Shown piece by piece: positions 6,757 through 61,757 of a stretch of 64,000 nucleotides of DNA (positions are counted from its first letter, which is position 1; the number at the start of each line of letters is the position of its first letter). The notes beneath the pieces were generated by a model. It ran no database searches. It saw only the letters and a program-made list of their open reading frames with translations, and was not told the origin of the DNA. This DNA is from Eledone cirrhosa (lineage: Eukaryota), in NCBI GenBank assembly GCA_964016885.1, contig OZ024743.1, forward strand, positions 33,790,001 through 33,854,000, read 5' to 3'. Made by a program: the position numbers and the translations under genes.

Positions 6757-6933
6757 ATGGTACAATGAGCCCAGCACTATGTGTCAATAATTGTCGCAAG
6801 TGTAGTGTTTGTACCAGAGTTTTCAAGTCGCTGGCTGGACTAAAAAGTCACACTCGTTCAGTGCATCGGTAGGGGTTCTCCTACATGGATATAAAGTAGT
6901 GGCCGTACTCGAAAACGAGTTGGCAGCCACCAT
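6757..6933 (+). mobile_element. Non-autonomous RTE derivative, copy 1 (5'-truncated)
   Basis: Matches the 3' part of 7612-8218; ends tggccgtactcgaaaacgagttggcagccaccat. Confidence 0.88.
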
Positions 6934-6942
6934 ATATACATA

Positions 6943-6973
<31 letters not shown>

Positions 6974-7000
6974 GTATGTATGTATATGTATGTATGTATG

Positions 7001-7032
<32 letters not shown>

Positions 7033-7085
7033 TATGTATGTATGTATGTATATGTATGTATGTATATATATATGTATGTATGTAT

Positions 7086-7131
<46 letters not shown>

Positions 7132-7132
7132 G

Positions 7133-7275
<143 letters not shown>

Positions 7276-7611
7276 GTATATATATATATGTATGTGTATA
7301 TATATATGTATGTATATATATATATATGTGTATATATATATATGTGTATGTATATATATATGTATGTATATATATATATATGTGTATATATATATATATG
7401 TATGTATATATATATGTATGTATATATATATGTATGTATATGTATATATATATGTATGTATATATATGTGTATGTATGTATGTATGTATATATATGTATG
7501 TATATGTATGTATGTATATATATGTATGTATGTATATATATGTATATATATGTATGTATGTATATATATGTATGTATGTATATATATATATGTATGTATA
7601 TATATATGTAT

Positions 7612-8218
7612 GTCAGGTCACCACTTGGTGCTACTGGTAACATGTATCCCAGTACAACCTGTCCCATGGTCGGGTCGTTGGCGACTAAACTGGCAACCCC
7701 ACTAAGGTTTCTTGGTGAGGAGGGTGACTTTGGACATCCTGCAGGACTAAAAACAAAACCTGTCAAAGGGCAAAGATCTCTTAAGAGTCAATGGCCATCC
7801 AAAATCACCGGGAGAGATGACCCCTTAGCCTTTGTCAAGGCAGAACTTTAGGAGAAGGAAAACTCTGATATAACACCTGCAACTCTGATGGTATCCAATG
7901 ATGTTGACTTGTTCTTCTTTTTGGTAAATATCATCTTGGTTAAGAGAGTGGGACTGGCTTTGTGCAGTACCTGTGCTCACTATAAAAGCTTCACGGCACA
8001 GGCATTGCTTTATATCTGGAGATCTCTCTGCACTTGTCGTCACATGGTACCATGGGCCCAGCACTATGTGTCAATAATTGTCACAAGTGTAGTGTTTGTA
8101 CCAGAGTTTTCAAGTCGCTGGCTGGACTAAAGTCATATTCGTTCAGCGCATCAGTAGGAGTTCTCCTACATGGATATAAAGTAGTGGCCATACTCGAAAA
8201 CGAGTTGGCAGCCACCAT
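7612..8218 (+). mobile_element. Non-autonomous bipartite RTE derivative (~605 bp), copy 2
   Basis: RTE-5'UTR-like block (taggagaaggaaaactctgat), decayed C2H2 coding remnant, and 3' end shared with the RTE at 46266-46299, followed by (GTAT)n. Confidence 0.88.
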
Positions 8219-8486
8219 GTATGTATGTATATGTATGTATATATATATGTATGTATATATATATGTATGTATGTATATATATATATATATATATGTATGT
8301 ATATATATATGTATGTATATATATATGTATGTATATGTATGTATGTATATATATGTATGTATGTATATATATGTATGTATGTATATATATATATGTATGT
8401 ATATATATATATGTATATATATATATATGTATGTATATGATGTATGTATGTATGTATGTATGTATGTATGTATGTATATAGATATC

Positions 8487-11400
8487 ACTTTCTCTTAATT
8501 TCGAGTATATTTTTTTTGACCGGCCACCTTCCTGGTGGCAAGGTTATAAAAGAAAAGAAATTGTCATCCCTTGAATCTCAAGAATGTTTTGCAAATTTTG
8601 AAGGTGCCAGCTATCGCAGCCATTTGTAGACTATGAATTAGGGAGCTGCGCTTTTTGTCCGCAAATCCAAGTTCAGTCATACTTTGGTCCAAGCGGGTTG
8701 GTATATAACCCGTAGCTCCAATAATGATGGGTATGAAGCTAAAGGTGTATCTTGCATACTGGATTTGTAAACTCCTCATCAATGGTCCGTAGATGTCCTC
8801 CTTCTCCTGTATTTTTCTGACAACGTTTACATCAAGTGGGCAGCTAATCTCCACAACAGAACACGTTTTCAATGTGTGGTCCCAAACAACAATATCAGGC
8901 CGGTTGAGCTTTAATTTGGTGGCAGTTTTTATTTTCAGGTTCCACCAGTATTCCTTAGTGCCATCTGTCTCAATATATTCCTCCTCGTTTGTTGTTAATT
9001 TTGTTTTCCGAAGTGCGTTCCAGATGGTTCTAGCTATCCCATCGTGTCTCATGGAGAGGTAGTAGCGAGATGACATTCTTTTGCAGCTGGCAACAATGTG
9101 GCTTACATCCTCGATCTTTGTTTTACATAGCCTACATTTATTGTCAGCTGCTGGCCCTCCTCTTTTGTGCAGCAGATATTTGGTAGGGAGTTCTTGTTCC
9201 TGTATTGCATAGAGATATCCCTCAAGGTGTGATGTCATAAACTTGTCGGAACTTCATGCCAGGCTTTTTGAGTGGTTTATCCCCTCTATGGTCTGTGTTT
9301 TACGCCTCAAGTATCCATGCACAACTTTTTCTGTAAATTGGTCAATTTTTTAATCTTGTTTGAACATTGAATAGGATCTTCCGATTTCTCTGGGTGAGAG
9401 ATTTATATCAGGCTTTATTCCATATCTCTCCTCCAGATCAGTTGCTATTCTAATGATATTTTTTTTTCATGCTCATAAACCTGGGCAAGATGGTTGCCAA
9501 CCTTTTTCCTCTGTTGTAGGTGTTGCTTCAATGTTACTATCCGGGTCTCATATGTTGTTAATATTGATTTTAGACCCCGGCCACCTTCATTGCATGAGAA
9601 GTATAGCCTATCCACATCACCATTGATGTTAAAGTTCCCAGTAACACTGAGAAGTTTTCGAGTTCTAACATCCATCTCACTTAGTTCTTGCAATGACCAG
9701 TTCAGCAGGCCAAATGTTGGCGTTAGAATTGGCACAGCATAAGTATTGTGGGCAATGTATTTGTTGTATGCTGACAGTTCTGATGACCATATTTTCTTTA
9801 CTCTTCTGAGGTATTCAGTTCTGGTTCTCTCCTTATTTATGGGTCCATCATATCTGACATTCTCATCCTGTCCAAGATATCTGTAGTTGTCACCTGACTG
9901 CAGAGGTCTGATGTCGGTTGAAAATTGTGTAATGAGGTCCAATTGTTTCTTGATGTCATTGATATTTGGCCCATACAACTTCAGGTCATCAACAAAGAAA
10001 AGATAGGAGATACTTCTGGGCCCACTTCTTTGTCCACCTTGTTTCCTGAGTAGGTAAGATAGTGGATTCAGTGAGAGAACGAAGAGTAGCACTGACAAGC
10101 TATCACCCTGAAAGATGCCCTTCTGGTAATGTATCTTATCAGTCTTAACTTGCTCCTTCTCACCTCTAAGGATCAAATTGGTGTACCAGTTCTTGGTCAG
10201 GCGTTCAACAGCAGCTACCAATGGTTGTGGGATTTTAGCTAACTGTAAAGCCTTAATAATCCACCCATGAGGTACACTATCAAATGCTTTTTGATAGTCC
10301 AGTCACACCACAGTCATGTTTCTGCGATTCTTTGTTGTTTTTTCCTGAATCATTGTGTAAGTTAGTAAGTGATCTATGCAACCCCACACCTCCCTCTTTC
10401 CACCAGCTTGCTCAGGTGTTATGATGTTGTTGGTAGCACAGTGATCCTGTAAGAACAGGTTAAGGCACCCAGTATATAATTTATTCATGATGTTTTGGCA
10501 GGCAAGGGTGGTTTGGCTATTTTGGGGAATGAGGAGAGTATTGGCAGTTGATAACCATCTGGGCAGTTCTTGTGTGCCTTTAATGGTTTCTGTAAACAGC
10601 CGTATGAGATCTTGCCGATAGAAAGTGAAATTCTTCAACCAGTATCCTGTAATGAGGTCTGGGCCTGGCGATTTCCTATTCGACATTTTCTGTAGAGCTG
10701 TTTCCAGTATTGACCCATCTATGTCATATTGTTTTATCTGGACATGTTGGCAGTAGTCCTGTTCCAGTTCTTTTAGCCAATTAGCTTGTCTGTTGAATCC
10801 GTCATCCGTTTCCCATACAGATCTCCAGTAGCTCTCAACCTGTTCTTTTGAAGGGGTGTCGTTTACAGGCATTGAGCTTTTGCCACCGAAGCTGCGATAA
10901 ACTGATTTAGGATCTCTGGCAAACAATCTATTTAGCACTTGTCGTTTATGTGCTGTTGACTTATATTTTAGTCTTTCTGTTGTAGCTGTGAGTTGTTGTT
11001 TCAACTGGTGTAATTTGGAGTTCAAAGTTTTTAATTTTGTATCTCCAAATCGTCTCTCTAACTTTTTCTTTAGGTCTTCCTGGTGTCGTGTGAAGTTGCT
11101 CTCTATGTTGCATTTCATAACGACTGTGATCTGTGAGATACTTCGTCTCAGGGACAAAATTTTTGTTTTTAAATTTCGCATCCACGCTGGTTCAGGCTTT
11201 CTGTTTGTATCTTGATTGCGTGGTTTTAGATGTTTGTTATATGCTAGCAATGTGACAGCTGAAACATATAACAAAATATTAAGCGTTCCAAATGTCGTTT
11301 CTACACCTTTAGATAGTATAGCCTTCAGATAATTACCAGTTATTTCGTTCACCGCTTCCAATTCCAATTTAGTGGGTTCTTTACTGATTCTGGTGTTGTA

Positions 11401-11540
11401 TGGGCTGTGTATCTCTTGAAACATATCGTTCCATATCACTTGTAGGGTGTGCACAAGTTTTTGGTGCTCTGTTTGTTCAGTAGAGTCATGAATTTCAGCC
11501 TCGTTGTTGATGTGGTGACAATTACTACTAGAGTTACTAC
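8487..11540 (-). mobile_element. R4/Dong-like non-LTR retrotransposon with restriction-like endonuclease, decayed
   Basis: ORF pieces 10303-11540, 9445-10221 and 8564-9238: KSPGPD, GIFQGDSLS, FVDDLKLY, GGRGL, CCHC (CRLC..H..C), RHD, PD..E..K. Frameshifts and internal deletions. Confidence 0.9.
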
Positions 11541-11680
11541 TATATATGTATGTATATATATATGTATGTATGTATATATGTATGTATGTATGTATGTATA
11601 TATGTATGTATATATGTATGTATATATATATATGTATGTATATATATATGTATGTATATATATATATATATGTATGTATG

Positions 11681-11731
<51 letters not shown>

Positions 11732-11732
<1 letters not shown>

Positions 11733-12184
11733 GGGCAAAGGAGCTCTTAAGAGTCAATGGCCATCCAAAATCACCGTGAGAGATGACCCCTTAGCCTTTG
11801 TCAAGGCAGAATTCTAGGAGAAGGAAAACTCTGATATAACACCTGCAACTCTGATGGTATCCAATGATGTTGACTTGTTCTTCTTTTTGGTAAATATCAT
11901 CTTGGTTAAGAGAGTGGGACTGGCTTTGTGCAGTGCCTTTGCTCACTATAAAAGCTTCACGGCACAGGCATTGCTTTATATCTGGAGATCTCTCTGCACT
12001 TGTCGTCACATGGTACCATGGGCCCAGCACTGTGTCAATTATTGTCACAAGTGTAGTGTTTGTACCAGAGTTTTCAAGTCGCTGGCTGGACTAAAAATTC
12101 ACACTCGTTCAGCTCATCAGTAGGGGTTCTCCTACGTGGATATAAAGTAGTGGCCGTAATCGCAAACGAGTTGGCAGCCACCAT
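11732..12184 (+). mobile_element. Non-autonomous RTE derivative, copy 3 (5'-truncated)
   Basis: Near-identical to 7767-8218; retains [22 protein letters not shown]. Confidence 0.88.
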
Positions 12185-12246
12185 GTATGTATGTATGTAT
12201 ATATATATATGTATGTATATATATATGTATGTATGTATGTATATAT

Positions 12247-12590
12247 GTAACAAATAAATAAATGAACATAAACACTCACAGACACCCGGATGTGGTGCAT
12301 GCGCAGACTGAGCACACAACACACACACAGAAACAAAATGGCGTAGGACAGAACAAAGGAGAGGTTCAGAAAGAAAGAAAGGAATCCCCAGTCACTGAAG
12401 AGGTCACAGAGTGTGTGACGAAAGAACTATGACTATATATAAACAACTATCTGGTTGTGGAACCAACCAACCAACCAGAAATTTATAAATTTGTAAATTT
12501 ATAAATTTATAAATATATATTAAATTGAAGTGAAAGCAACTGGTGCGTGTGTTTCTTATTGGCAATATGACCCTCCCAAAGTATAACAAT
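12247..12590 (+). mobile_element. Short hammerhead-bearing non-coding insert (retrozyme / PLE pLTR-like)
   Basis: Unique ~340 bp between microsatellites, containing an HHR motif. Confidence 0.7.
12390..12434 (+). ncRNA. Type I hammerhead ribozyme
   Basis: AGTCA-CTGAAGA-g GTCACA gagtg TGTGAC-GAAA-G AA C-TA-TGACT; stems I and II pair perfectly. Confidence 0.85.
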
Positions 12591-12955
12591 ATATGTATGT
12601 ATATATATATATATATGTGTATGTATATATATGTATGTATGTATATATATAAGTATGTATATATATATATATGTATGTATGTATGTATATATATATGTAT
12701 GTATATATATATATGTATGTATATATATATGTATGTATATATGTATGTATATATGTATGTATGTATATATGTATGTATGTATATATGTATGTATATATGT
12801 ATGTATGTATATATGTATGTATGTATATATATATGTATGTATATATATATGTATGTATATATATATGTATGTATATATGTATGTATATATATATGTATGT
12901 ATATATGTATGTATATATATATGTATGTATATATGTATGTATATATATATGTATG

Positions 12956-12989
<34 letters not shown>

Positions 12990-13145
12990 TGTATGTATAT
13001 ATGTATGTATGTGTATGTATGTATGTATATATGTATGTATGTATATGTATGTATGTATGTATATATATATATATGTATATATGTATGTATGTATATATAT
13101 ATATATGTATATATATATGTATGTATATATATATGTATATGTATA

Positions 13146-13181
<36 letters not shown>

Positions 13182-13398
13182 TATATATATATATATGTAT
13201 GTATATATGTATGTATGTATGTATGTATATGTATGTATGTATATATATATATATATATATGTATGTATATATGTATGTATGTATGTATGTATATGTATGT
13301 ATGTATGTATGTATATATATATATATATGTATGTATGTATGTATGTATATATGTATGTATGTATATATATATGTATGTGTATGTATGTATATATATAT

Positions 13399-14007
13399 GT
13401 CAGGTCACCAGTTGGTGCTACTGGTAACATGTATCCCAATACAACCTGTCTCATGGTCGGGTCGTTGGCGACTAAACTGGCAGCCCCACCATGGTTTCTT
13501 GGTGAGTCGGGTGACTTTGCACCTCTTGCAGGACTAAAAACAAAACCTGTCAAAGGGCAAAGATCTCTTAAGAGTCAATGGCCATCCAAAATCACCGGGA
13601 GAGATGACCCCTTAGCCTTTGTCAAGGCAGAATTCTAGGAGAAGGAAGACTCTGATATAACACCTGCAACTCTGATGGTATCCAATGATGTTGACTTGTT
13701 CTTCTTTTTGTTAACTATCACCTTGGTTAAGAGAGTGGGACTGGCTTTGTGCAGTGCCTTTGCTCACTATAAAAGCTTCACAGCACAGGCATTGCTATAT
13801 ATCTGGAGATCTCTCTGCACTTATCGTCACATGGTACCATGGGCCCAGCACTATGTGTCAATAATTGTCACAAGTGTAGTGTTTGTACCAGAGTTTTCAA
13901 GTCGCTGGCTGAACTAAAAAGTCACACTTGTTCAGCGCATCGGTAGGGGTTCTCCTACATGGATATAAAGTAGTGGCCGTACTCGAAAACGAGTTGGCAG
14001 CCACCAT
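13399..14007 (+). mobile_element. Non-autonomous RTE derivative, copy 4 (full length)
   Basis: Same 5' start (gtcaggtcacc) and 3' end as copy 2. Confidence 0.88.
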
Positions 14008-14120
14008 ATATATATATATGTATGTATATATATATGTATGTATATATGTATGTATATATGTATGTATATATATATGTATGTATATATGTATGTATATATA
14101 TATGTATGTATATATATATG

Positions 14121-14155
<35 letters not shown>

Positions 14156-14172
14156 GTATGTATATATATATG

Positions 14173-14203
<31 letters not shown>

Positions 14204-14211
14204 GTATATAT

Positions 14212-14588
14212 GTCAGGTCACCAGTTGGTGCTACTGGTAACATGTATCCCAGTACAACCTGTCTCATGGTCGGGTCGTTGGCGACTAAACTGGCAACCCC
14301 ACCAAGGTTTCTTGGTGAGGAGGGTGACTTTGGACATCCTGCAGGACTAAAAACAAAACCTGTCAAAGGGCAAAGGAGCTCTTAAGAGTCAATGGCCATC
14401 CAAAATCACCGGGAGAGATGACCCCTTAGCCTTTGTCAAGGCAGAATTCTAGAAGCGTAGTGTTTGTACCAGAGTTTTCAAATCGCTGGCTGGACTAAAA
14501 AGTCACACTCGTTCAGCGCATCCGTAGGGGTTCTCCTACATGGATATAAAGTAGTGGCCGTACTCGAAAACGAGTTGGCAGCCACCAT
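14212..14588 (+). mobile_element. Non-autonomous RTE derivative, copy 5 (internally deleted)
   Basis: Same termini; jumps from ...gaattctag to ...gtagtgtttgtacc near 14452. Confidence 0.88.
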
Positions 14589-18300: not shown

Positions 18301-18499
18301 GTAGATAAATCTACCAAGAGTTTACGGTAGTGTCCAATCCGTATGAAGAACTCAATGTATTCCGGATATCATGGAAAGAAGAGATGTAATGAAAAATCAC
18401 TTTCGGTGAAAGATAAACGGTATACAGAGTCAAGATAAAATATTAAACAAATAATGAATAAAACAATGAAACAGTTCCTTATATTAAACAAAAAAAGTT

Positions 18500-18649
18500 C
18501 ATTATTTAACGATCGTTTCTAGGATATATATGTGTTAGAATTGGCATGCATATTCAACAGATCTATGTACAAAATTATACAAAATTATACAAACTATCAA
18601 GATTAAATATACATATCAACACATATATACGCCGTCTTCAGAAATAATG
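18500..18649 (-). ncRNA. Type I hammerhead ribozyme with long stem II
   Basis: Reverse-complement copy of 19472-19611. Confidence 0.75.
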
Positions 18650-19471
18650 AAATATATTTATTGATAATAACAACAATTCAAAATTTCAGGTCCGTTTGGG
18701 AACAAAATTGACCAATGAAAATACAAAAGGTTTAATGCAGTTCGGTGTGTGTATATACATGTAACTACCCTTACACATATTTTACAAAAATGTATGCTCA
18801 ACTTGTATATATTTCTTTTTTCTTTTTTCTTTTTCTTCTCTTTCCTTTTTAATGTTTATTTTTTTTATTTTCTTAGTTTATAGATACATCTATAATAAGC
18901 AGTCTGCCCAAACCGTTGAATACTGACCTCTCCCCCCCTCCCACCTAATTTCTGTATCTTGATCTAAATGTGTGTGCCAGTGTTTATGTGAGTGAATTAA
19001 TATCCATGTGCTTATGACATTATATCCACATATATATATGTGAGTGGGGGTGTGTGTGTGTTTGTATGTTCGTAGTTATGTGTATGTTTATGCATTCGTA
19101 GTTATGTGTATGTTTATGCATTCGTAGTTATGTGTATGTTTATGCATATACGCGCGCGTGTGTGTGATTGTACGGATATGTGTGAGTATGAGAATATGTG
19201 TATACACTTATTTCATATTTATGTGTCTATACGCATCTTATCTGTGCATTATAAACTTACAGAGACATTAACCTTGAAATTTTGTATTTGCATCCATCCT
19301 TTTGGTATGCGTATACAAGTTGAGCATACATTTTTGTAAAATATGTGTAAGGGTAGTTACATGTATATACACACACCGAACTGCATTAAACCTTTTGTAT
19401 TTTCATTGGTCAATTTTGTTCCCAAACGGACCTGAAATTTTGAATTGTTGTTATTATCAATAAATATATTT

Positions 19472-19611
19472 CATTATTTCTGAAGACGGCGTATATATGT
19501 GTTGATATGTATATTTAATCTTGATAGTTTGTATAATTTTGTACATAGATCTGTTGAATATGCATGCCAATTCTAACACATATATATCCTAGAAACGATC
19601 GTTAAATAATG
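19472..19611 (+). ncRNA. Type I hammerhead ribozyme with long stem II
   Basis: CATTATTT-CTGAAGA-[~105 nt; tatatatgtgtt pairs with aacacatatata]-GAAA-CGATCG-TT-AAATAATG; 8-bp stem I and palindromic stem III. Confidence 0.78.
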
Positions 19612-19673
19612 AACTTTTTTTGTTTAATATAAGGAACTGTTTCATTGTTTTATTCATTATTTGTTTAATATTT

Positions 19674-19813
<140 letters not shown>

Positions 19814-19877
19814 TACATATATATACATATATATATATGTATATATATGTATATATATGTATATATATATATGTATA

Positions 19878-19927
<50 letters not shown>

Positions 19928-19939
19928 TGTATATATATG

Positions 19940-19999
<60 letters not shown>

Positions 20000-20011
20000 T
20001 GTATATATATG

Positions 20012-20044
<33 letters not shown>

Positions 20045-20151
20045 GTATATATATGTATATATATGTATATATATGTATATATGTATATATATATATATAT
20101 ATGTATATATATGTATATATATATATATATATGTATATATATGTATATATG

Positions 20152-20202
<51 letters not shown>

Positions 20203-20213
20203 GTATATATGTA

Positions 20214-20246
<33 letters not shown>

Positions 20247-20283
20247 ATATATATATATATATGTATATATATGTATATATATG

Positions 20284-20314
<31 letters not shown>

Positions 20315-20315
20315 G

Positions 20316-20426
<111 letters not shown>

Positions 20427-20431
20427 GTATA

Positions 20432-20558
<127 letters not shown>

Positions 20559-20563
20559 GTATA

Positions 20564-20698
<135 letters not shown>

Positions 20699-20781
20699 GT
20701 ATATATATATATATATGTATATATATGTATATATATATATATATTTATATATATGTATATATATATGTATGTATATATATG

Positions 20782-20844
<63 letters not shown>

Positions 20845-20868
20845 ATATGTATATATATATGTATATAA

Positions 20869-20986
<118 letters not shown>

Positions 20987-20997
20987 GTATATATATG

Positions 20998-21028
<31 letters not shown>

Positions 21029-21057
21029 GTATATATATATATATATGTATATATATG

Positions 21058-21115
<58 letters not shown>

Positions 21116-21261
21116 TGTATATATATGTATATATGTATATATATGTATATATATATATGTATATATATGTATATATACATATATATATGTATATATATGT
21201 ATATATACATATATATATGTATATATATGTATATATATATATATATATGTATATATATGTA

Positions 21262-21310
<49 letters not shown>

Positions 21311-21339
21311 GTATATATATATATATATGTATATATATG

Positions 21340-21375
<36 letters not shown>

Positions 21376-21462
21376 TGTATATATATGTATATATATGTAT
21401 ATATATGTATATATATATGTATATATGTATATATATGTATATATATGTATATATATATATGT

Positions 21463-21494
<32 letters not shown>

Positions 21495-21503
21495 GTATAT
21501 ATG

Positions 21504-21536
<33 letters not shown>

Positions 21537-21555
21537 GTATATATATATGTATATA

Positions 21556-21644
<89 letters not shown>

Positions 21645-21717
21645 GTATATATATATGTATATATATATGTATATATATATGTATATATATATGTATATAT
21701 ATATGTATATATATATG

Positions 21718-21752
<35 letters not shown>

Positions 21753-21753
21753 G

Positions 21754-21786
<33 letters not shown>

Positions 21787-21787
21787 G

Positions 21788-21884
<97 letters not shown>

Positions 21885-21897
21885 GTATATATATATG

Positions 21898-21932
<35 letters not shown>

Positions 21933-21945
21933 GTATATATATATG

Positions 21946-22054
<109 letters not shown>

Positions 22055-22179
22055 GTATATATATATGTATATATATGTATATATATATGTATATATATAT
22101 ATATGTATATATATGTATATATATATATATATGTATATATATGTATATATATGTATATATATATATATGTATATATATG

Positions 22180-22216
<37 letters not shown>

Positions 22217-22369
22217 GTATATATATGTATATATATATATATATGTGTATATATATGTATATATATATGTATATATATGTATATATATGTGTATATATAT
22301 GTATATATATGTATATATATATATATATGTATATATATGTATATATATATATATATATGTATATATATG

Positions 22370-22400
<31 letters not shown>

Positions 22401-22541
22401 GTATATATATATATATATATGTATATATATGTATATATGTATATATATGTATATATGTATATATGTATATATATGTATATATATGTATATATGTATATAT
22501 ATGTATATATGTATATATATGTATATATATATATATATACG

Positions 22542-22576
<35 letters not shown>

Positions 22577-22635
22577 GTATATATATGTATATATATACAT
22601 ATATATGTATATATATATATATATGTATATATATG

Positions 22636-22692
<57 letters not shown>

Positions 22693-22753
22693 GTATATAT
22701 ATGTGTATATATATATATATATGTATATATATGTGTATATATATATATGTATA

Positions 22754-22798
<45 letters not shown>

Positions 22799-22869
22799 GT
22801 GTATTATATATATATATGTATATATATGTGTATATATTATATATATTATATATATATATATATATATGT

Positions 22870-23041
<172 letters not shown>

Positions 23042-23061
23042 TGTTATATATATATATATAT

Positions 23062-23636
23062 GTTGTAATAAAATGAAAACGAAATTTTTTTCTCACTCTT
23101 AGTACGGCACTTACTTAAATGTAAGTATGTATGTATACGTACATACATATATGTATACAGACGTACAGTAGCATGCATATATATATATATATATATATAT
23201 ATTATACATACAGGTACACATACATATATGTACGTATCAGTTTAGTGGACGCTTATTATAGCGCCCGCTTTGTTCGTTTGTAAACAAACTGAACAGCCTG
23301 AATTTATGCCGTACGGTGTTAAGGCAACCACGTCACCTTTTTGTTCAACACTGACACAGGAACGATGTACTAGTTTCAAGCTTGTTAGCTATCATCAGCA
23401 TCGTATACCCTTCTGCCAGATGGTTGAACGTTCGAAAGTATATACTTTCCTTATGAAAATTAACGGCTGAGCAGCCTAATTTGCATATCGAGTGAGTTCG
23501 GCCAGGCGTACCGAGAACGACAAGTTGTAATAAAATGAAAACGAAATTTCATTTCTCACTCTTAGTACGGCACTTACTTAAATGTAAGTATGTATGTATA
23601 CGTACATACATATATGTATACAGACGTACAGTAGCA

Positions 23637-23678
<42 letters not shown>

Positions 23679-23812
23679 CAGGTACACATATACATATATG
23701 TATGTACGTATACATACATACTTACATTTAAGTAAGTGCCGTACTAAGAGTGAGAAATGAAATTTCGTTTTCATTTTATTACAACTTGTCGTTCTCGGTA
23801 CGCCTGGCCGAA
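23062..23812 (-). mobile_element. Hammerhead-bearing partial-tandem element with inverted end
   Basis: Direct repeats starting at 23062 and 23524 (period ~462); ~23690-23812 inverts ~23497-23615; HHR lies between the repeats. Confidence 0.78.
23362..23404 (-). ncRNA. Minimal type I hammerhead ribozyme
   Basis: Minus strand ACGATG-CTGATGA-t AGCT aaca AGCT t-GAAA-CTAG-TA-CATCGT. Confidence 0.85.
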
Positions 23813-24203
23813 AAAAATACCACGAAAAAAATACCACGGAGGCGGAGGGGGTATTCATATCGAGGCCGTAGAAGAGGTAGTGAAGAAGGCGAGAAGTATG
23901 AGTAATGGAAGCTTTCCAGTTGTCCCCACACTTCAAAGATTGCTCGACCAGAGGGAGTTATTAATATATTTAGAAACACACAGATACATGCGGACACACA
24001 CATATATACATGAATGCATCCGCACCCAACTGTGAGTTAAGGGTGCCAACTTCACCGATGTTGCTCAATGAATGACTGGGACAGACCAATTCAGTTTGAA
24101 CCAGACTGAACCAGTATCGGAGTTAAAAATACATTATGAAGAGAGAAGAAACATTTAGATATAATTAGTAGTAAAATGTATCATACCTAAACTGTTCCTA
24201 AAT

Positions 24204-24291
24204 TCCTCGACTACGTAGTTTCATGGCATAAACAAAAACAATATATCAAAGATATAGAGTCCTTGCGAGGTCTGCCGACTTATCAAGAGGA
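24204..24291 (-). ncRNA. Hammerhead ribozyme, U3-A8 core variant
   Basis: Minus strand TCCTC-TTGATAA-gtcggca...tgccat-GAAA-CTACGTAG-TC-GAGGA. Confidence 0.72.
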
Positions 24292-24805
24292 TACCTCATT
24301 TTACTAGTCTCAAGAACGCGTCTACACGACGTGAGAAAGAATCATATCTAAATGTTTCTTTTCTCTTCATAATGTATTTTTAACTCTGATACTGGTTCAG
24401 TCTGGTTCAAACTGAATTGGTCTGTCCCAGTCATTCATTGAGCAACATCGGTGAAGTTGGCACCCTTAACTCACAGTTGGGTGCGGATGCATTCATGTAT
24501 ATATGTGTGTGTCCGCATGTATCTGTGTGTTTCTAAATATATTAATAACTCCCTCTGGTCGAGCAATCTTTGAAGTGTGGGGACAACTGGAAAGCTTCCA
24601 TTACTCATACTTCTCGCCTTCTTCACTACCTCTTCTACGGCCTCGATATGAATACCCCCTCCGCCTCCGTGGTATTTTTTTCGTGGTTATAAGAGGCTTA
24701 GCTCTGTTTCTCGACCGTTATATCGCGTGACTATCTCCCCCTCCGCCTTTTGGGATTCTTTCTCACGTCGTGCAGACGCGTTCTTGAGACTAGTAAAATG
24801 AGGTA

Positions 24806-24893
24806 TCCTATTGATAAGTCGGCAGACCTCGCAAGGACTCTATATCTTTGATATATTGTTTTTGTTTATGCCACGAAACTACGTAGTCGAGGA
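24806..24893 (+). ncRNA. Hammerhead ribozyme, U3-A8 core variant
   Basis: TCCTa-TTGATAA-gtcggca...tgccac-GAAA-CTACGTAG-TC-GAGGA; one stem I mismatch. Confidence 0.68.
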
Positions 24894-25136
24894 ATTTAGG
24901 AACAGTTTAGGTATGATACATTTTACTACTAATTATATCTAAATGTTTCTTCTCTCTTCATAATGTATTTTTAACTCTGATACTGGTTCAGTCTTGTTCA
25001 AACTGAATTGGTCTGTCCCAGTCATTCATTGAGCAACATCGGTGAAGTTGGCACCCTTAACTCACAGTTGGGTGCGGATGCATTCATGTATATATGTGTG
25101 TGTCCGCATGTATCTGTGTGTTTCTAAATATATATG

Positions 25137-30167: not shown

Positions 30168-32199
30168 TAACTTTGAATAACTTTGAAATGTTTTCGCCAG
30201 TATTGGCCCAGGCCATGTCTAACTTAATAGCACCACCTGGCGAAGTCTTTCAATTCAGGATTTGGGCACCATGGCCCATTCGAGAAGAGAATTACTGTTT
30301 GCGGAGACATATCCGGGTGTGGGTGGTTTGTCCGGGATTACTTGGAGGAATTTGTCCAAAGACTTCTTGAATTTTGTGTGGTCAGTTTCTGTTTTGACGT
30401 GTCCTGGTGTGATGTTGAAGAGAGCAGGGCCGATTGAGGTGAAATAATTGTGCCGTATTGTTGTTATGAGTTGCGATTTAGATTTTTGAATGGGACGGAT
30501 AGCACGGGGCCCAAGCCTTGGGTGTATCTTGAAGGCGATGCCAACATCATTTGGGCAGTGATGATGGAACATTTTCCACATCATGCAGATAATATAACGC
30601 TCACGGCGACGTTGGAGTGAGTAAAGTTTCAGGTTTTCCAATCGACCCCAGTAGTCAAGGTCTGACATGCCATCTATCTTTTTCGTGATTGCCCTTTGAG
30701 GAGCTTCAAGTTTCATGATACTTTGTTTCGTGTGGGGAGACCACAGTGGACAACAGTATTCAAGGTGTGGTCGGGCGAAAGTAGAGAAGAGAAGGATAAT
30801 GGTGCGGGAATCTCTCGACTGGAAGGTTCTGAGGATCCAGGAACACATTCTGCGGGCCATGTCAACTTTGCTGCTTATATGCGTGGTCCAGCTTATGTTG
30901 CTGTCCACGGTTACTCCCAAGTCTCTGATGTTGTTAGATGCCACGAGAGTTTCCCCGGAGGGAAGGGAGTACGGGAGTTTCAGAGCATCCTCTTTTCCAA
31001 AGTGGATCAGTTCGAATTTGTCTTCGTTCAGTAACATGTTGTTCTTTTCTGCCCATTGGGTAACAGCCAGTAGGTCTGACTGAAGGCTTATCCGGTCATC
31101 CACGCCATTGATGACCTTTTGGAGCTTGGAATCATCAGCGAAAATTTTAATGTTGCTGTGTTTGATGATGTCAGTGATGTCATTAATATAGATGATGAAG
31201 AGAAGTGGGCCCAACACAGTGCCTTGTGGGACTCCACTACTGACTTTGGCTGGGCTTGATTTGACTCCCTCAACTACAACATCTTGGGTTCTGTTTGACA
31301 GGAAGCTCTTGATCCACTGCAGCAGCTTTCCAGTGACACCAATATTGGACAGCTTTCTCAGTAGAATGTTATGATCAACCCTGTCAAAGGCCTTGCTGAA
31401 ATCAAGGTAGATAACATCAGTGTTGGAACCCTCTCCCAAGGCTCTCAAAATGTCATCAAAGTGATGCAGTAGTTGCGTCAGGCAATCCCTTCCATTACGG
31501 AATCCATGCTGGTTGGAGTTCAGCATATTGTTACTCTCAAGGAAGTGGGTCATTCGCGATCTCACCACTCGCTCAAATACCTTAATGATATGAGAGGTGA
31601 GTGAGATTGGACGGTAATTCACGGCAAGGGATTTGTTTCCCTTTTTGAAAACTGGGACAACAGACTGGGATAGAAGGTTTTCTGGCACATATCCAGCATC
31701 CAGTGAGTTCCGCCACAGATTGGCAAGAGGAGAAGCAAGTTGGTGTTGACACGCCTTCAAGACACAAGCAGGGAACCTATCGGGACCTACTGCTGAATTA
31801 TGCTTGATTTCCTTTATTGCTGCCAAGACATCAGGGGCGCCAAACGTTATGTCCGATAAGGTGTAATGGGGAGTAACATCGCCGATACAGCCCAGATCGG
31901 CCATATCAGGATTGCTGAAAACAGAGCAGTATTGTTTCTGCAGTATCTCACCCATGGTTTTAGCATTGTCTTGAAGAGTGCCATTTTCATCAATTAGAGG
32001 GCCAACAGTAGAGCCAGTGATTTTGTGTTTTTTTGCAAATGAAAAGAACACTTTGGGATTGAGTTTGATCTTCTCAATGGCCCAGGCCTCTTCAGCTCTT
32101 CTCTGATTGTTGATGAGGGACATTATGTTGTTTTGGAGGTTATGTTTTTTAATCTCTAGTGATGAAATGGCAGTCAAGTTGATGTGTTGCTGCTGACAG
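30168..32199 (-). mobile_element. 5'-truncated CR1-group LINE with open RT frame (30255-32199)
   Basis: [67 protein letters not shown]; tail (TTCAAAGTTA)n. Confidence 0.93.
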
Positions 32200-32242
<43 letters not shown>

Positions 32243-32255
32243 GTATATATATATG

Positions 32256-32335
<80 letters not shown>

Positions 32336-32633
32336 TGTATATGTATGTATGTATGTATATATATATGTATATGTATGTATGTATGTATATATATATATAT
32401 ATGTATGTATATGTATATGTATATATATGTATATGTATGTATATATATATGTATATGTATGTATGTATATATGTATATGTATGTATATGTATATGTATGT
32501 ATATATATATATATATGTATATGTATGTATATATGTATATGTATGTATATATGTATATGTATGTATATATGTATATATATGTATGTATGTATATATATCT
32601 ATGTATGTATATATATATATATGTATATATATG

Positions 32634-32672
<39 letters not shown>

Positions 32673-32695
32673 GTATGTATATATATGTATGTATG

Positions 32696-32726
<31 letters not shown>

Positions 32727-33155
32727 GTATATATATGTATGTATGTATATATGTATATATATGTATGTATGTATATATGTATATATATGTATGTATGTAT
32801 ATATGTATATATATATATGTATATATATGTATGTATGTATATATGTATATATGTATGTATGTATATATATATATATATATGTATATATATGTATGTATGT
32901 ATATATATATATATGTATATATATATATGTATATATATATATGTATGTATATATATATATGTATATATATATATGTATGTATATATATATATATGTATAT
33001 ATATGTATGTATGTATATATATATATATGTATATATATATGTATGTATGTATATATATATATGTATATATATATGTATGTATGTATATATATATATGTAT
33101 GTATGTATATATATATATGTATGTATGTATATATATATGTATGTATGTATGTATG

Positions 33156-33188
<33 letters not shown>

Positions 33189-33392
33189 ATGTATGTATAT
33201 ATGTATGTATATGTATGTATATATATATGTATGTATATATGTATATATATATATGTATGTATGTATGTATATGTATGTATATATGTATATATATATATGT
33301 ATGTATATGTATATATATGTATGAATATGTATATATATGTATATATATGTATGAATATGTATATATATGTATATATATGTATATATATGTAT

Positions 33393-33985
33393 GAATACTG
33401 TTGTCCACTGTGGTCTCCCCACACGAAACAAAGTATCATGAAACTTGAAGCTCCTCAAAGGGCAATCACGAAAAAGATAGATGGCATGTCAGACCTTGAC
33501 TACTGGGGTCGATTAGAAAACCTGAAACTTTACTCACTCCAACGTCGCCGTGAGCGTTATATTATCGGCATGATGTGGAAAATGTTCCATCATCACTGCC
33601 CAAATGATGTTGGCATCGCCTTCAAGATACACCCAAGGCTTGGGCCCCGTGCTATCCGTCCCATTGAAAAATCTAAATCGCAACTCATAACAATACGGCA
33701 CAATTATTTCACCTCATCGGCCCTGCTCTCTTCAACATCACACCAGGTCACGTCAAAACAGAAACTGACCACGCAAAATTCAAGAAGTCTTTGGACAAAT
33801 TCCTCCAAGTAATCCCGGACAAACCACCCACACCCGGATATGTCTCCGCAAACAGTAATTCTCTTCTCGAATGGGCCATGGTGCCCAAATCCTGAATTGA
33901 AAGACTTCGCCAGGTGGTGCTATTAAGTTAGACATGGCCTGGGCCAATACTGGCCAAAACATTTCAAAGTTATTATTCAAAGTTA
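33393..33985 (+). mobile_element. 3' fragment of the same CR1-group LINE in opposite orientation
   Basis: Near-identical reverse complement of 30168-30761. Confidence 0.92.
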
Positions 33986-36349: not shown

Positions 36350-37132
36350 AGGGCTTTCTTCTCACTACTAGATAAAAACTTCCCTCTAGGACACAAGTAC
36401 CACAACCTCTTAAACAAAAACACCATTAAAATCTCATACTCCACGACGCCTAACTTAGCATACCACATAGCTAGCAGCAATAATAGTAAAATTAGTTCTT
36501 ACTTCCAACAAACAAAATCGCAACGGGATGCAAACCCTCTAAATACCACTGTAGCAAGCAACAATAGCAACGGCAGTAACAATAGAAATAACACTAGTAT
36601 AAGTAATAACACCAGGGTTGTCAACCTGAACACCCAAAATCCTATACCCACCACACAGACTTCCGCATTGCATTATAACCAGCGGACTAACGCACAGAAT
36701 AATTGTAACTGTAGAACTAATAGAACCTGCCCTTTAGATAAAAAATGCCTAACCAAGGATGTCATATACTCATGCACAGTCACGACTAATAACTCTTCAG
36801 AAACCTATGTAGGCTCCACTTCTAACTGCTTCAAAATTAGATATAACTCGCACATCCACTCGTTCAAAAAGCACAGCCTAGCCAACTCCACCTCACTTTC
36901 TAGCTACATTCACTATCTAAAATCTAAAAATAAACCATACACACTCAAATGGGAAGTGATAGGCAGCGCGACCTCGTACAAACCACCTAATAAATTCTGT
37001 AACCTCTGTATACTAGAGACACACAATATTATCTTCTCCAACCGTAACCTACTTAACAAAAAATCTGAGGTGTTTGCAACTTGCCAGCACCGCCTCAGAC
37101 ATTCCTTCCAAAACTTTAAGCCCCATATATAG
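36350..37132 (+). CDS. Penelope-like RT C-terminus, Asn-rich linker and GIY-YIG endonuclease (partial)
   Basis: KISYSTTPN; CNCR..CPL..C; VIY...YVGST..FKIRY..H; CNLCILE; LLNKKSE; C.H. Confidence 0.88.
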
Positions 37133-38574
37133 CAATGTTGGACTGGAACCTAACACCACATCTAGCATCAAACACCAGAGACACACCCTATACTACATAC
37201 CCAACACTAGCTGATCCATTATAACACAAACAACGACATCCCTCTGGAACCCTTCGCAGGGAAAATACCCATTTATACCTCTACGGCAGGTGTGACAACA
37301 TCCACCCACCTGGACGGCACTACACCGCTCTAAGGGTAATTTGAGCATGATTGATCGGTTGGATGGTGTTGGGCAGAGGAAACACCTTCCTTAGACAGAT
37401 GTAAAATGATTTAATCGAGTAGCGCTGTTGACCAGTAGGACCAGGCTGCTGAACGCAGTGAGTGAATGCAGTGCAACTGCCGTGCGGGTTGTACGTATAT
37501 GGATGATCTGACGGTCAGAGAGGGGTCGCGAGGACTGCGGATTGACCTTTGGCCTGCCTGGGGATGATTATCTTTCGACATCCAATGTAGCAAGCGATGA
37601 CCCAGATCTTACCAGAGATCATTGGGTCCTGAAGCAATCCTGCAATCACCGCGCCTGGTCATATGAGCAGACTACAACCATAGAGATCATTAATTTAGAA
37701 TCCTCGCTCATCATCTATAATTTCCATTTGTAGCACCTTAAGATGGGTTAATCCACCCTAATAATAATATGATCACCTTCAGCATAATTTAGTTAAACTA
37801 CTCTATAGTTAGTACACTTTATGCTTTAAAAGTCTCTCTTGGAAGGTGCACCTCGCCATAGAATTTAGGGTCTATATTGAGACACATTTTAATGGCTAGA
37901 TATAGAAACCCCAGAGTTACCTCCCCGCATGCATTAACTCCCCTTAGCCACACACACACTTCCGGTATTCAATGGCGTCTCTCGAAACGTAACACCCTCC
38001 TGTATCGAACTAAAGAACACCAGACTACGATCTCTAACTGGATTGTCGTGGATTATGTGAAAGGCATATAATCGAAATATACACTCCCTTGACCATGAAA
38101 ATACCGAAGTACATGAATTACTTGACATCCCTGCGCTGTGCATCTCCAATACTTATAACACTTTTAATGCTTGCACTATCTTTAATGCTTATAATATTTC
38201 TCCACACACAGACTATATCAATCATATAAAGACTTTGCCACCAGATCTACCAACCTAACACTCTTATTTACCTACCTAAGTGCCTCTACCACACATATCT
38301 CTCTGCCACACTATATAAACAAGACGCACATGCGTGCCACACATATAACATTTGCACTATATAACCACTTATCTTCATGTTGTACTTTAACCTATATCTT
38401 TGATTTTTGATTGTACCTATTAATATAAATGTAATCTCGAAGTGTGTACTGCCACTCTAAATTCTGTAATGAATGTTGACCCACAATGTTTGAATATGTA
38501 TCAATGTTTGAATATGTATTGGTATGTCTCTCGGCTGAAAAGGAGGTCATATAACTGTCCATGCATTAATAAAT

Positions 38575-38621
38575 TGCTCCGAAGAATCCAAACCTCGGTT
38601 TGGAGGAAACAGCTGTAAGCA
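38575..38621 (+). ncRNA. Minimal hammerhead ribozyme of the PLE (U4C core variant)
   Basis: TGCT-CCGAAGA-a TCCAAACC tc GGTTTGGA g-GAAA-CAGCTG-TA-AGCA. Confidence 0.78.
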
Positions 38622-38832
38622 CAATAATGTTTTGAACAGTTCTTTGATTCTTATATTTCATATAACTGCTCTGTAAATCATCTGATGTTTTTACATTGAG
38701 CTACTTAACTTACTGGTAATAAGGTAGTAATACATTACTGCCTACCACTATTTAGGGTGTGTGTAAAATACTTACAACTGCTTAAGGTTTTGTGTTTACA
38801 TAACCATAAATAGTATAACTAATACTATATAT

Positions 38833-40959: not shown

Positions 40960-41690
40960 GAAAAAGAACACAAGAGCGTCTACAACATCAAAAGATTTTT
41001 ATTGGCTAACAATGTTTCTTCCTTACGTGTAACCGTAGGATTCATCAGAGCTATAAAAGGGGTTTGATTGGTGTTATGGACTCTACCAACCAAACACCCA
41101 AGAACAAAGAGTAAAGAGAGTAAAGAGCAAAAGTAGGGGACGATAAGTCTAATTTTGGTGCGGGAGGGTGGGGTGTTGGTCCTTGTTTACTAGCTGCGGT
41201 CATCGGGGGTCGGGTGGTTAGCTGAACCACAGATGGGGTGGCGTGGATAGTATGGTGCAGAGGCTACACAAACACAAAGGGCGTAGAATACATATATACA
41301 TATAGCGGAGGAGAAGGTACATGAGGTAATTAGAAGTGGAAAAAGAGTAATAATAATAATCTATAATTAATAGTGTATAATAAGGCATGGGGAAGATTAC
41401 ACTATAATAAGGTATAAAGGTAAGAATAAGGTAAAATATAAAGGAGGATAAAAGTGGAAATAATAATAAAGATAAAAAAATATATAGAGAATATATAAGG
41501 AAATATAAGCGAATATTTGGAGGGGAAAACACAATGTAAAAAAAAAAACGATTTTTTTCAAACAATAATAAAAAATAATAAAAATATAATAATTATGGGG
41601 GGAGAAAACAGGATAGAGAAATATGATCAAGTGTGATTCGTTGAGAGAATATAAGATGATAACAGTTGTGTCCGGTTTATACATCATCAT
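40960..41690 (-). mobile_element. Hammerhead-bearing non-coding insert (PLE 3' end / retrozyme-like)
   Basis: T-rich on the minus strand, HHR about 45 nt from the microsatellite junction; right boundary approximate. Confidence 0.65.
41005..41051 (-). ncRNA. Minimal type I hammerhead ribozyme
   Basis: Minus strand GCT-CTGATGA-a TCCTACG gttaca CGTaAGGA a-GAAA-CATTG-TT-AGC; stem I extends by ttttat/ataaaa. Confidence 0.8.
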
Positions 41691-41693
41691 CAT

Positions 41694-42762
41694 CTATGTC
41701 CTAATTTCACACTATATCATATTTTCACCATTCTATATCATATCTTTTCTCTAAAAATCATATTTTCCCTATCACCGCATTTTCTCTATCGTATTTTCTT
41801 AAACAAAACAAATCTTGTATTTTCGTTTATTGTTAAATTATGCCCAAAATACGGCGATCTTATCTTAAACCTTACATTCTGTCATATTTTCATATTCTGT
41901 CGTATTTTCATATCAAAACAAATCACTATTATATATTCCTTTAAATATAATTTGTTAAACTTGCTAAGTTTTACGCAAAACTTCGAGTACCTATTTAAAC
42001 TTTTAACCTCTGCTTCATCCCATATTCTACCCCCTACCCATTCATCATGCTGGTTCCTGCCCCCCCCCCTCCCTATACATATAAGATAAAACCCTACCAA
42101 AATTAATCAAAATCGCCAACTCGCTATTTCTGGGATGGCTGTTCCCTTCGGTATAAAGTAACGTTCAAATTTTTCTCGATTCTTCTCTCCATTCGAACCC
42201 ATTCATTCAATCACTTCTATGTCCTAATTTCACACTATATCATATTTTCACCATTCTATATCATATCTTTTCTCTAAAAATCATATTTTCCCTATCACCG
42301 TATTTTCTTAAACAAAACAAATCTTGTATTTTCGTTTATTGTTAAATTATGCCCAATTTTTTCTCGATTCTTCTCTCCATTCGAACCCATTCATTCAATC
42401 ACTTCTATGTCCTAATTTCACACTATATCATATTTTCACCATTCTATATCATATCTTTTCTCTAAAAATCATATTTTCCCTATCACCGCATTTTCTCTAT
42501 CGTATTTTCTTAAACAAAACAAATCTTGTATTTTCGTTTATTGTTAAATTATGCCCAATTTTTTCTCGATTCTTCTCTCCATTCGAACCCATTCATTCAA
42601 TCACTTCTATGTCCTAATTTCACACTATATCATATTTTCACCATTCTATATCATATCTTTTCTCTAAAAATCATATTTTCCCTATCACCGCATTTTCTCT
42701 ATCGTATTTTCTTAAACAAAACAAATCTTGTATTTTCGTTTATTGTTAAATTATGCCCAATT
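41694..42762. repeat. ~202-bp tandem repeat (3 units plus an upstream partial unit)
   Basis: Units at ~42168, ~42356 and ~42558 (periods 188 and 202); partial copy 41694-41847. Confidence 0.9.
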
Positions 42763-43051
42763 TTCATCTTAATAATAAATAATAAACAATATGTGTATCA
42801 GAGTTTCAGAACCTTCAATTCACTTACGGGTTCAAGCCACGTGGCATGGTCCATTGTTTATCTGTGCGGTCATGTGCGTTTGTTTTTGACACCACAGCAG
42901 ATTGACAAGTTTGTAAATTCCATTGCAGATAGAAGTAAATTTTTGCTCACCCGGACATTGACCGAGGATCCAATATGTATATATATATATATGTATATAT
43001 GTATATATATATATATGTATATATGTGTATATATATATATATGTATATATG

Positions 43052-49004: not shown

Positions 49005-49240
49005 GAATTTCTGTACACAAATTTTCTGTCTGTAGGATAAATATTTAACCAATATATATATATATATATATACACATACATATATATATATACAAACATA
49101 TATATATATATATATATATGTTTGTATGTATATATATATATATATATATGTTTGTATATATATATATATGTTTGTATATAATATATATGTTTGTATATAT
49201 ATATATATATATATATATGTTTGTATATAATATATATGTT

Positions 49241-49274
<34 letters not shown>

Positions 49275-49361
49275 TGTATATATATATATGTATGTTTATA
49301 TATATATATATATATTGGTTAAATATTTGTCCTACAGACAGAAAATTTGTGTACAGAAATT
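49005..49361. repeat. ~47-bp inverted repeat enclosing microsatellite
   Basis: gaatttctgtacacaaattttctgtctgtaggataaatatttaaccaa and its reverse complement at 49316-49361 (one mismatch). Confidence 0.9.
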
Positions 49362-50094
49362 CCCATTTCTCAACTTAATTAAATATTCAAATAACTTAGG
49401 TTCCATTTGCAGAACCTCAATGATTTATTTCCTTTATATGTACATACATTATCATAAGTGTATTTTGTATATATTTACTCACATTTGCATATGCCTCTGT
49501 GTGTGTGTGTATATACACTCACACACACAAACACATTTACTTGCATTTCTAAATGTTGACATCGATATACAACATATGCTTTTCTTTTAATAAATAATCC
49601 TTTTTACATTTACATTACTCCTTCCACTCTATTTTCTTGATTCTCTCACAATGTCTTGTTCTCTCAGTTTTTGTTTCCCTTTATCAAATCTCTGTCATCC
49701 TTTAACACCCCCCCACCCCCATCCTCACACTTCCTCAAAAGGGCAGTTTCCCTACATTTATATCTATATTGATTCAGGAAATTTAATTTTGTGATAATCA
49801 ATCTAGAGTTGTGCTTATACAAAAAGCATGTTCTACAACTGTAGATGTTCACAGAAAAGGTGCATGTATATTTCCTATCCACTGACATAATATTGAATCA
49901 TCATCATCTGTCTATTTCCCATGCTTGCAGGATTGTTTATTCAATATGAAATTCTGGAAAACATGTAGAATATCTAATTTTTTATCTTAATGAATAAACA
50001 TAACTAAAGAAAAATCCAAAAGTAAGGCATAAAATGAACTGTTTAAAATAAAAGTAGGCTTTTGTCAAGTTTATTAACATAGGTTACTGGCTCT

Positions 50095-61210: not shown

Positions 61211-61757
61211 TAATGGCTAAAACTGATAAAATAATAAATATATCTAACACATTTTGATGCATCAATATGACATGTATGGTTATATGGAATGTTAGGGCAT
61301 TATTTTTCTTGTTATAACAGAAAACAGAAAATTATTGTGCAGTGTTCGGTAAACCCATACGTACACATATATATATGTGTGCATGTATGTATATATATAT
61401 ACATACTACTGTACGTCTGTATACATATATGTATGTACGTATACATACTTATATATTGTGCAGTGTAATACTTGTTTAAAATGTAATAATAGCAGTGTGA
61501 AATGTTCACCTAATAATTTTAAAATACTAAACAATTTCAATAAAAACTAAGAAGTGCATTGACTATCATTTCTTCAAATGTGTTTTTGTATAGGATTTCC
61601 AACAAACATGCACACGCACACACACACGCACACACACACGCAGAGACAGAGACAGACATTTAACATAGATGTTATTTGTGTGTTAGTTGTGTTATTGAAG
61701 TAGGGAAAGCAATCTCCCTTAAGCATTCAAATTCAAGTGGTAGCCTTGGATGTAACA

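Follow-up and report, generated by a model that had tools for sequence, protein, structure and literature searches.

A hammerhead-bearing, non-coding element of probable PLE origin, with direct and inverted partial copies, in the genome of Eledone cirrhosa

Organization of element A

The stretch of DNA analyzed here (the window) covers 64,000 nt of contig OZ024743.1 from Eledone cirrhosa (assembly GCA_964016885.1, positions 33,790,001 to 33,854,000). The DNA is AT-rich and of animal type, with pieces of mobile elements interspersed between long (TA/TG)n tracts, and 6 of the 14 frames scanned matched the Pfam RVT_1 model. The insert considered in this work, element A (23062-23812), comprises 1.36-1.39 copies of a 462-nt non-coding unit and begins where a microsatellite tract of ~3.4 kb ends. 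Its left flank is (TA/TG)n, and on its right lies another insert, element B, with (TA)n past the latter. The features of element A and its left flank are as follows.

19674..23061, no strand: (TA/TG)n microsatellite, target site left of element A
23062..23523, minus strand: full 462-nt unit, non-coding; the sense strand is the minus strand and the 3' end is at 23062
23062..23232, minus strand: 3' copy of the direct repeat (3' pLTR), with internal (TA)n at 23172-23202
23362..23404, minus strand: type I hammerhead with a 6-bp stem I, CUGAUGA core and GAAA; predicted cut after GUA, 23368/23367
23479..23486, plus strand: ATTTGCAT octamer, at chance frequency
23497..23523, minus strand: initial 27 nt of the unit, from which the tail derives; the segment stops at the 3' base of a small hairpin (predicted)
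23524..23702, minus strand: 5'-truncated upstream copy (5' pLTR), ending 128-140 nt short of a would-be second hammerhead cut (~23830)
23689..23702, no strand: head-to-head joint of the direct and inverted arms; overlap of 2 nt (strict) or 14 nt (with slip)
23689..23812, plus strand: inverted 5'-truncated copy made up of 97 nt of pLTR and a 25-27-nt tail (23786-23810/23812); last 2 nt common with element B

Repeats were mapped by masked self-BLAST; a repeat finder applied to the 21-26 kb region was swamped by microsatellite. In a strict alignment the direct repeat pairs 23062-23222 with 23524-23690 (161/167 nt), and it extends to 23062-23232 and 23524-23702 (171/179 nt) when a 2-nt slip at the joint is allowed. 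The start-to-start period was 462 nt, both by masked self-BLAST and in exact alignments. An earlier, sequence-only reading of this DNA had described a terminal direct repeat of ~175 bp, a period of ~462 nt and a (TA)n tract inside the unit, all of which were recovered, the tract at both 23172-23202 and 23635-23680. Over their first 110/111 nt the two repeats differ by one substitution and a 1-nt gap, at one site, and a 5-nt gap separates their (TA)n portions. The 3' end of the unit (23062) abuts (TA)n, 306 nt past the predicted ribozyme cut.

When read on the minus strand, element A presents an inverted arm, followed by the head-to-head, 5'-truncated upstream copy and then by one full unit. 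The arm, noted earlier as an inverted segment of ~120 bp, is an exact reverse complement of 23497-23620 (124/124 nt), and its polarity (5' end, head to head) is set by the strand of the hammerhead. Three features were absent from the earlier description: the arm overruns the unit junction by 25-27 nt, stopping at the base of the small predicted hairpin; a perfect palindrome of 12 nt (23691-23702) lies within the joint; and element B, not (TA)n, follows directly on the right. The 25-27-nt tail occurs on one end only and is shorter than the 30-40 bp described as usual for the tails of Penelope-like elements (PLEs), and it may have been shortened by the joint with element B. Classical twin-priming inversion was rejected for this arm, which repeats sequence already present and does not invert the next upstream stretch. 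No target-site duplication was readable at element A.

Neither a linear nor a circular reading of the unit revealed coding potential, the longest stop-free frame being 74 aa (75 aa spanning tandem copies), and the RT and GIY-YIG ORF of an autonomous PLE is missing. The predicted fold gave z-scores of -8.7 for the whole unit and -5.3 without its microsatellite part. The octamer pointed out earlier near 23479 is indeed present, but it has no evidential value: 7 matches to ATTTGCAT occur in the window versus 6.19 expected, and 7 were reached in 40 of 100 shuffles, so that a role as a promoter signal was rejected. By eye, the upstream repeat offers a donor-like GUAAGU and the unit an acceptor-like site (23577-23450, minus strand), which would delimit a 128-nt intron across both presumed RT starts, like PLE 5' introns; the pair could be a chance occurrence.

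No second full copy of element A was detected in the 64-kb window by BLAST (word size 7) or nhmmer. Its sole relative there is a microsatellite-rich relic of ~105 nt (~61350-61455), identical over its best part at 44/45 nt, which suggests that the internal (TA)n of element A belongs to the element and not to a former target.

Predicted hammerhead ribozymes

Element A holds a single hammerhead, located outside the direct repeats, between the two, as the sequence-only reading had placed it, although without its strand (minus). A strict scan for the core plus stems, run on both strands of the 64 kb, gave no other match. A U-U pair is followed by a 4-bp stem II with a 4-nt loop, and stem III is minimal and palindromic. 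Among the 26 Hydra-clade rows of File S2 of PMC8557442, counted by eye, 14 have a U-U pair next to stem II, 10 of them together with a 4-bp stem II and a 4-nt loop; stem III of element A is shorter than the 3-4-bp stems of the Hydra table.

The window contained no Rfam match at the gathering score. In a 181-nt search the HH9 model weakly matched 23350-23412 of the minus strand (19.3 bits versus a gathering score of 52; E 0.014). Rfam miRNA matches at the E-value level lay far under their thresholds and were dismissed as products of the inverted repeat and (TA)n.

A relaxed scan of the window, to which two variant cores were added after inspection, returned 7 sites versus 0-8 in 30 shuffles (7 being reached in 1 of the 30), an unfiltered count that is not striking. 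Sites with a palindromic stem III and a stem I of at least 4 bp numbered 6, two of them the arms of element C (see below), versus 0-2 in 30 shuffles. The hammerhead-like site at 55354-55248 is probably due to chance. The hammerheads of elements A, B, C, D and E each face a (TA)n tract 70-306 nt downstream.

Neighboring elements

The other elements of the window that were compared with element A are listed below; none of them shares sequence with it within the window.

23813..25127, plus strand: element B, 1.33 copies of a 591-nt unit, built on the plan of element A in unrelated sequence; (TA)n on its right
18304..19673, no strand: element C, inverted arms 18438-18809 and 19312-19673 with one hammerhead per arm; (TA)n on both sides
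36351..38825, plus strand: element D, 5'-truncated protein-coding PLE with a C-terminal GIY-YIG-like domain; (TA)n on both sides
12250-12588: element E, 339 nt inserted between (TA)n tracts; a type I hammerhead, well formed, lies at 12395-12429, plus strand
40961-42972: element F, degenerate, with a degenerate minus-strand hammerhead near 41048, its core facing (TA)n, and 190-200-nt tandem repeats at 41693-42764

Element B carries a 197-nt direct repeat (24340-24536 and 24931-25127) and an inverted arm (23819-24343) with an extension of ~151 nt. Its hammerhead is a variant in the U3-A8 core positions, a covariation known from PLE ribozymes (PMC4209133), with a predicted cut at 24888/24889 and a minus-strand copy at 24286-24209; the element ends ~45 nt before a second cut site. 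At the left end of the element, a duplication of 14 nt resembles the outcome of slippage during initiation. The fusion with element A involves 2 common bases, within a 4-nt match of the end of element A to the continuation of element B, and no (TA)n lies between them. Each of the three copies in element B bears one private change. The segments of the inverted arm follow an order that only a longer tandem or a circle would contain, and the unit junction of element B must have pre-existed in its template.

This last point bears on the view of element A as a one-off product, in which a longer PLE would have had its 3'-terminal 462 nt copied, followed by a jump to the start site of a second RNA and then by fold-back. 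Such an event would suit the single copy found within the window and an inverted arm that matches the internal repeat exactly and might have arisen by folding back across the junction, and self-priming of PLEs at palindromes has been proposed (PMC3846280). However, the arm stops in a tail-like manner, 25-27 nt beyond the junction at the hairpin base, and the unit retains no ORF remnant; together with the pre-existing junction of element B, these features render a one-off origin improbable.

In element C, the left arm alone has an extension of 134 nt, longer than the tails described for PLEs and without a second copy in the window, and the stem II region is unusually long (105-115 nt). The inverted arms of elements B and C diverge by 1-3%, with private changes. 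In all inverted-arm cases (A, B and C) the polarity is the same, the 5' ends meeting and the 3' ends pointing outward. A duplication and inversion by DNA repair after insertion, or an assembly or library artefact in a microsatellite-rich region, might be suspected at element A, where the inverted arm is 100% identical and 3.4 kb of (TA/TG)n lie alongside, and assemblies are known to struggle with such structures (PMC8557442). The divergent arms of elements B and C, the single-copy extension of the latter and the constant polarity argue against either cause, which we regard as very improbable.

The arms of elements B and C, by their order and their kind, respectively, are not obtainable by simple fold-back, so that second priming on a longer template presumably occurs in this genome. 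For the arm of element A, fold-back of the first cDNA would be an equal reading; this does not apply to the arms of elements B or C.

Element D is the protein-coding member of the set. Its motifs (CxCX5C linker, CxxC and CxH, with no CCHH) were judged by eye, with the RT missing, to follow the Hydra-clade pattern. Its match to the Pfam GIY-YIG model is weak (E 0.019, under the curated cut-off), and its one database relative gave an E-value of 0.00021. The element bears a hammerhead variant with a CCGAAGA core, 208 nt from the 3' end, in a 3' region of ~1.7 kb. An asparagine-rich stretch precedes the endonuclease. A search of solved structures returned nothing meaningful for element D, and the Atlas search gave no result. 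By shared sequence, no autonomous partner of element A was found within the window, element D included.

Further repeats were seen elsewhere in the window. The interval 6760-14585 contains an element of ~600 nt in several nearly identical copies (7614-8215, 13401-14004 and partial ones), with (TA)n after each. A LINE-type RT fragment lies at 30170-33983, its 3' end being repeated in inverted orientation past a (TA)n tract (30170-30760 and 33394-33983; 97.8%), and a TA-rich tract at 49005-49362 is enclosed by 47-nt inverted repeats. A tRNA-derived SINE was considered and set aside, no tRNA gene having been called in the window under bacterial settings, which are a weak test for a SINE head. A SINE motif near 61.8 kb may point to a cephalopod host, a matter that plays no part in the present argument.

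Comparison with known systems

Formation as a PLE partial tandem, which the sequence-only reading had offered as one possible origin, is well supported, the structural features of element A being largely in keeping with PLE insertions as described in PMC3846280 and PMC8557442. The element Pen2a_Av, as presented in PMC3846280, combines a pair of direct pLTRs with an inverted one that overlaps by 15 bp and has a tail of 31 bp, and palindromes are described there at inverted joints; in element A the corresponding features are 161-179-nt repeats, an overlap of 2-14 nt and a tail of 25-27 nt on one end. The canonical insertion in the legend to Fig. 2 of PMC8557442 likewise includes a head-to-head, inverted 5'-truncated pLTR. 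Element A departs from it in having ~290 nt of non-coding sequence in place of the RT-endonuclease ORF and an upstream pLTR that ends before the hammerhead. The general plan, including the bias toward (TA)n, is reported in the same source also for Naiads, which lack canonical hammerheads.

Within the PLEs, a likeness is seen to the Hydra clade, the members of which target (TA)n according to PMC8557442. Element A resembles them in its (TA)n target, in a hammerhead near the 3' end and in a 4-bp stem II flanked by a U-U pair, and Penelope-13_HM of that clade also carries an inverted 5'-truncated copy. It differs in its lack of an ORF and its shorter stem III, the comparison having been made from published descriptions. 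On these grounds, element A is very probably an insertion of PLE-type origin, and it would be classed as a new non-autonomous, retrozyme-like PLE family member. Its mobilizer would be an autonomous PLE with (TA)n as target, most likely of the Hydra clade, supplying both the RT and the GIY-YIG endonuclease.

Non-autonomous Chlamys PLEs such as MRC1 are similar in being non-coding PLE derivatives with pLTRs and head-to-tail insertions, as described in PMC8557442. They come, however, from green algae, canonical hammerheads are mostly absent from their autonomous clade, and their 3' ends match known partners, whereas no such partner of element A was found within the window.

Animal non-LTR retrozymes share with element A a short non-coding unit, one type I hammerhead, a structured RNA and co-occurrence with PLEs (PMC7229834; preprint 10.64898/2026.07.22.740005). 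Its 462 nt fall within the range of 51-972 bp given in the preprint and just over the 170-400 nt given in PMC7229834. In contrast to the two hammerheads in tandem of such retrozymes, the locus of element A has one; it also displays the inversion-and-tail footprint of a PLE. The definition of an active non-LTR retrozyme locus in the preprint, in which retrozymes are argued to derive from pLTRs, calls for at least two consecutive hammerhead-bearing units, and element A, with its one hammerhead, falls outside it. Plant LTR retrozymes are likewise non-coding, with terminal direct repeats and a hammerhead (PMC7229834; preprint 10.64898/2026.07.22.740005), but as described there they carry a type III ribozyme inside both LTRs, a PBS and PPT and a 4-bp TSD, versus the type I ribozyme between the repeats of element A.

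Proposed mechanism of insertion

The insertion of element A may be pictured in four steps. A multi-unit RNA would first be transcribed from a tandem or partial-tandem donor elsewhere. The PLE enzyme would then nick both strands of AT-rich DNA, and RT would begin at two fixed internal sites, which in the case of element A would lie 25-27 nt apart. A first cDNA of 629-641 nt would start at 23062 and cross one intact hammerhead and then the unit junction, and a second cDNA, or fold-back of the first, would give the 124-nt inverted arm with its tail. Finally, the cDNAs would be joined head to head at the palindromic microhomology, the sequence of which is present at the joint and the order of events conjectural.

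This scheme follows what has been described in vitro for a lizard PLE, in which both target strands are nicked and extended, and in which RT starts at two internal sites, the spacing of which equals the tail (PMC11167929). The ends of element A resemble two such fixed starts, and its earlier characterization as a permuted structure was therefore overstated.

Linear or circular template

Because the continuous 629-641 nt span an intact ribozyme and the unit junction, either the template of element A was longer than one unit (at least 1.4 units) or the enzyme jumped. The letters of element A would be identical for a linear multimer, for a monomer with a jump and for a circle, and sequence cannot separate the three. 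With one ribozyme only, the locus of element A cannot itself release a monomer or a circle. We favor an uncut linear multimer, or a monomer combined with a template jump, which we judge somewhat likelier than a ligated circle.

The main rival reading invokes the same enzyme with a 462-nt circle as template. Two hammerhead cuts in a tandem transcript, followed by ligation, would have produced this circle, around which RT would proceed ~1.4 times from a fixed internal site. Retrozymes of corals, mussel and axolotl accumulate as abundant small circles according to PMC7229834, and the unit of element A is short, non-coding and strongly structured. In the circular fold, stems I and II of its hammerhead are predicted to pair (probabilities 0.58-1.0), and the palindromic stem III accords with cleavage in multimers and silence in the monomer, as discussed in PMC4209133. 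Internal initiation would require RNA 3' of the start, as a circle provides, and the neighbors A and B both amount to 1.3-1.4 units, each having a single intact ribozyme in its direct portion.

Other published observations weigh against the circle. PLEs without canonical hammerheads make equal partial tandems (PMC8557442), and for the lizard PLE in vitro, as reported in PMC11167929, hammerhead mutants inserted unaffected, cleavage was dispensable and the main substrate was uncut RNA; the same paper found the cut site to coincide with the end of none of the RNA-seq reads. Of nine retrozyme dimers from Xenopus, eight showed no cleavage in preprint 10.64898/2026.07.22.740005. Elements A and B both end before the second cut (by 128-140 and ~45 nt, respectively), as linear RNA might, although two cases say little. 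The repeats of element A differ at one non-microsatellite site, as against a perfect inverted arm; divergence between repeats was set aside as a test for a circle, one site in element A and one private change in each of the three copies of element B being uninformative. Taken together, a circular template at element A is conceivable but on the doubtful side.

Either shape of template would be expected to give fixed ends, and finding them would therefore not refute a circle; similarly, in divergent RT-PCR, a linear RNA longer than one unit should yield the product of a circle as well. A circular template was proposed in 2014 for PLE tandem copies of more than one unit (PMC4209133), and again for animal retrozymes, with PLEs named as likely mobilizers (PMC7229834). 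It is thus a published hypothesis and not a new idea, and our literature search found no experiment demonstrating a circle as the template for PLE tandems or animal retrozymes.

The architecture of element A is well known, and its locus alone adds one more example with no answer on the template. As a young, non-coding family of 462 nt that shows the whole PLE footprint, it would be a convenient substrate for testing a circular template. More broadly, elements A and B could tentatively, and somewhat against the odds, be taken as footprints of rolling RT by a Hydra-clade PLE enzyme, from fixed internal starts, on small circles made by hammerheads. If so, retrozyme circles would be tied to PLE insertion chemistry in one genome, and the two start sites could lie far apart, the extensions being ~151 nt in element B and 134 nt in element C, versus the 30-40 bp described.
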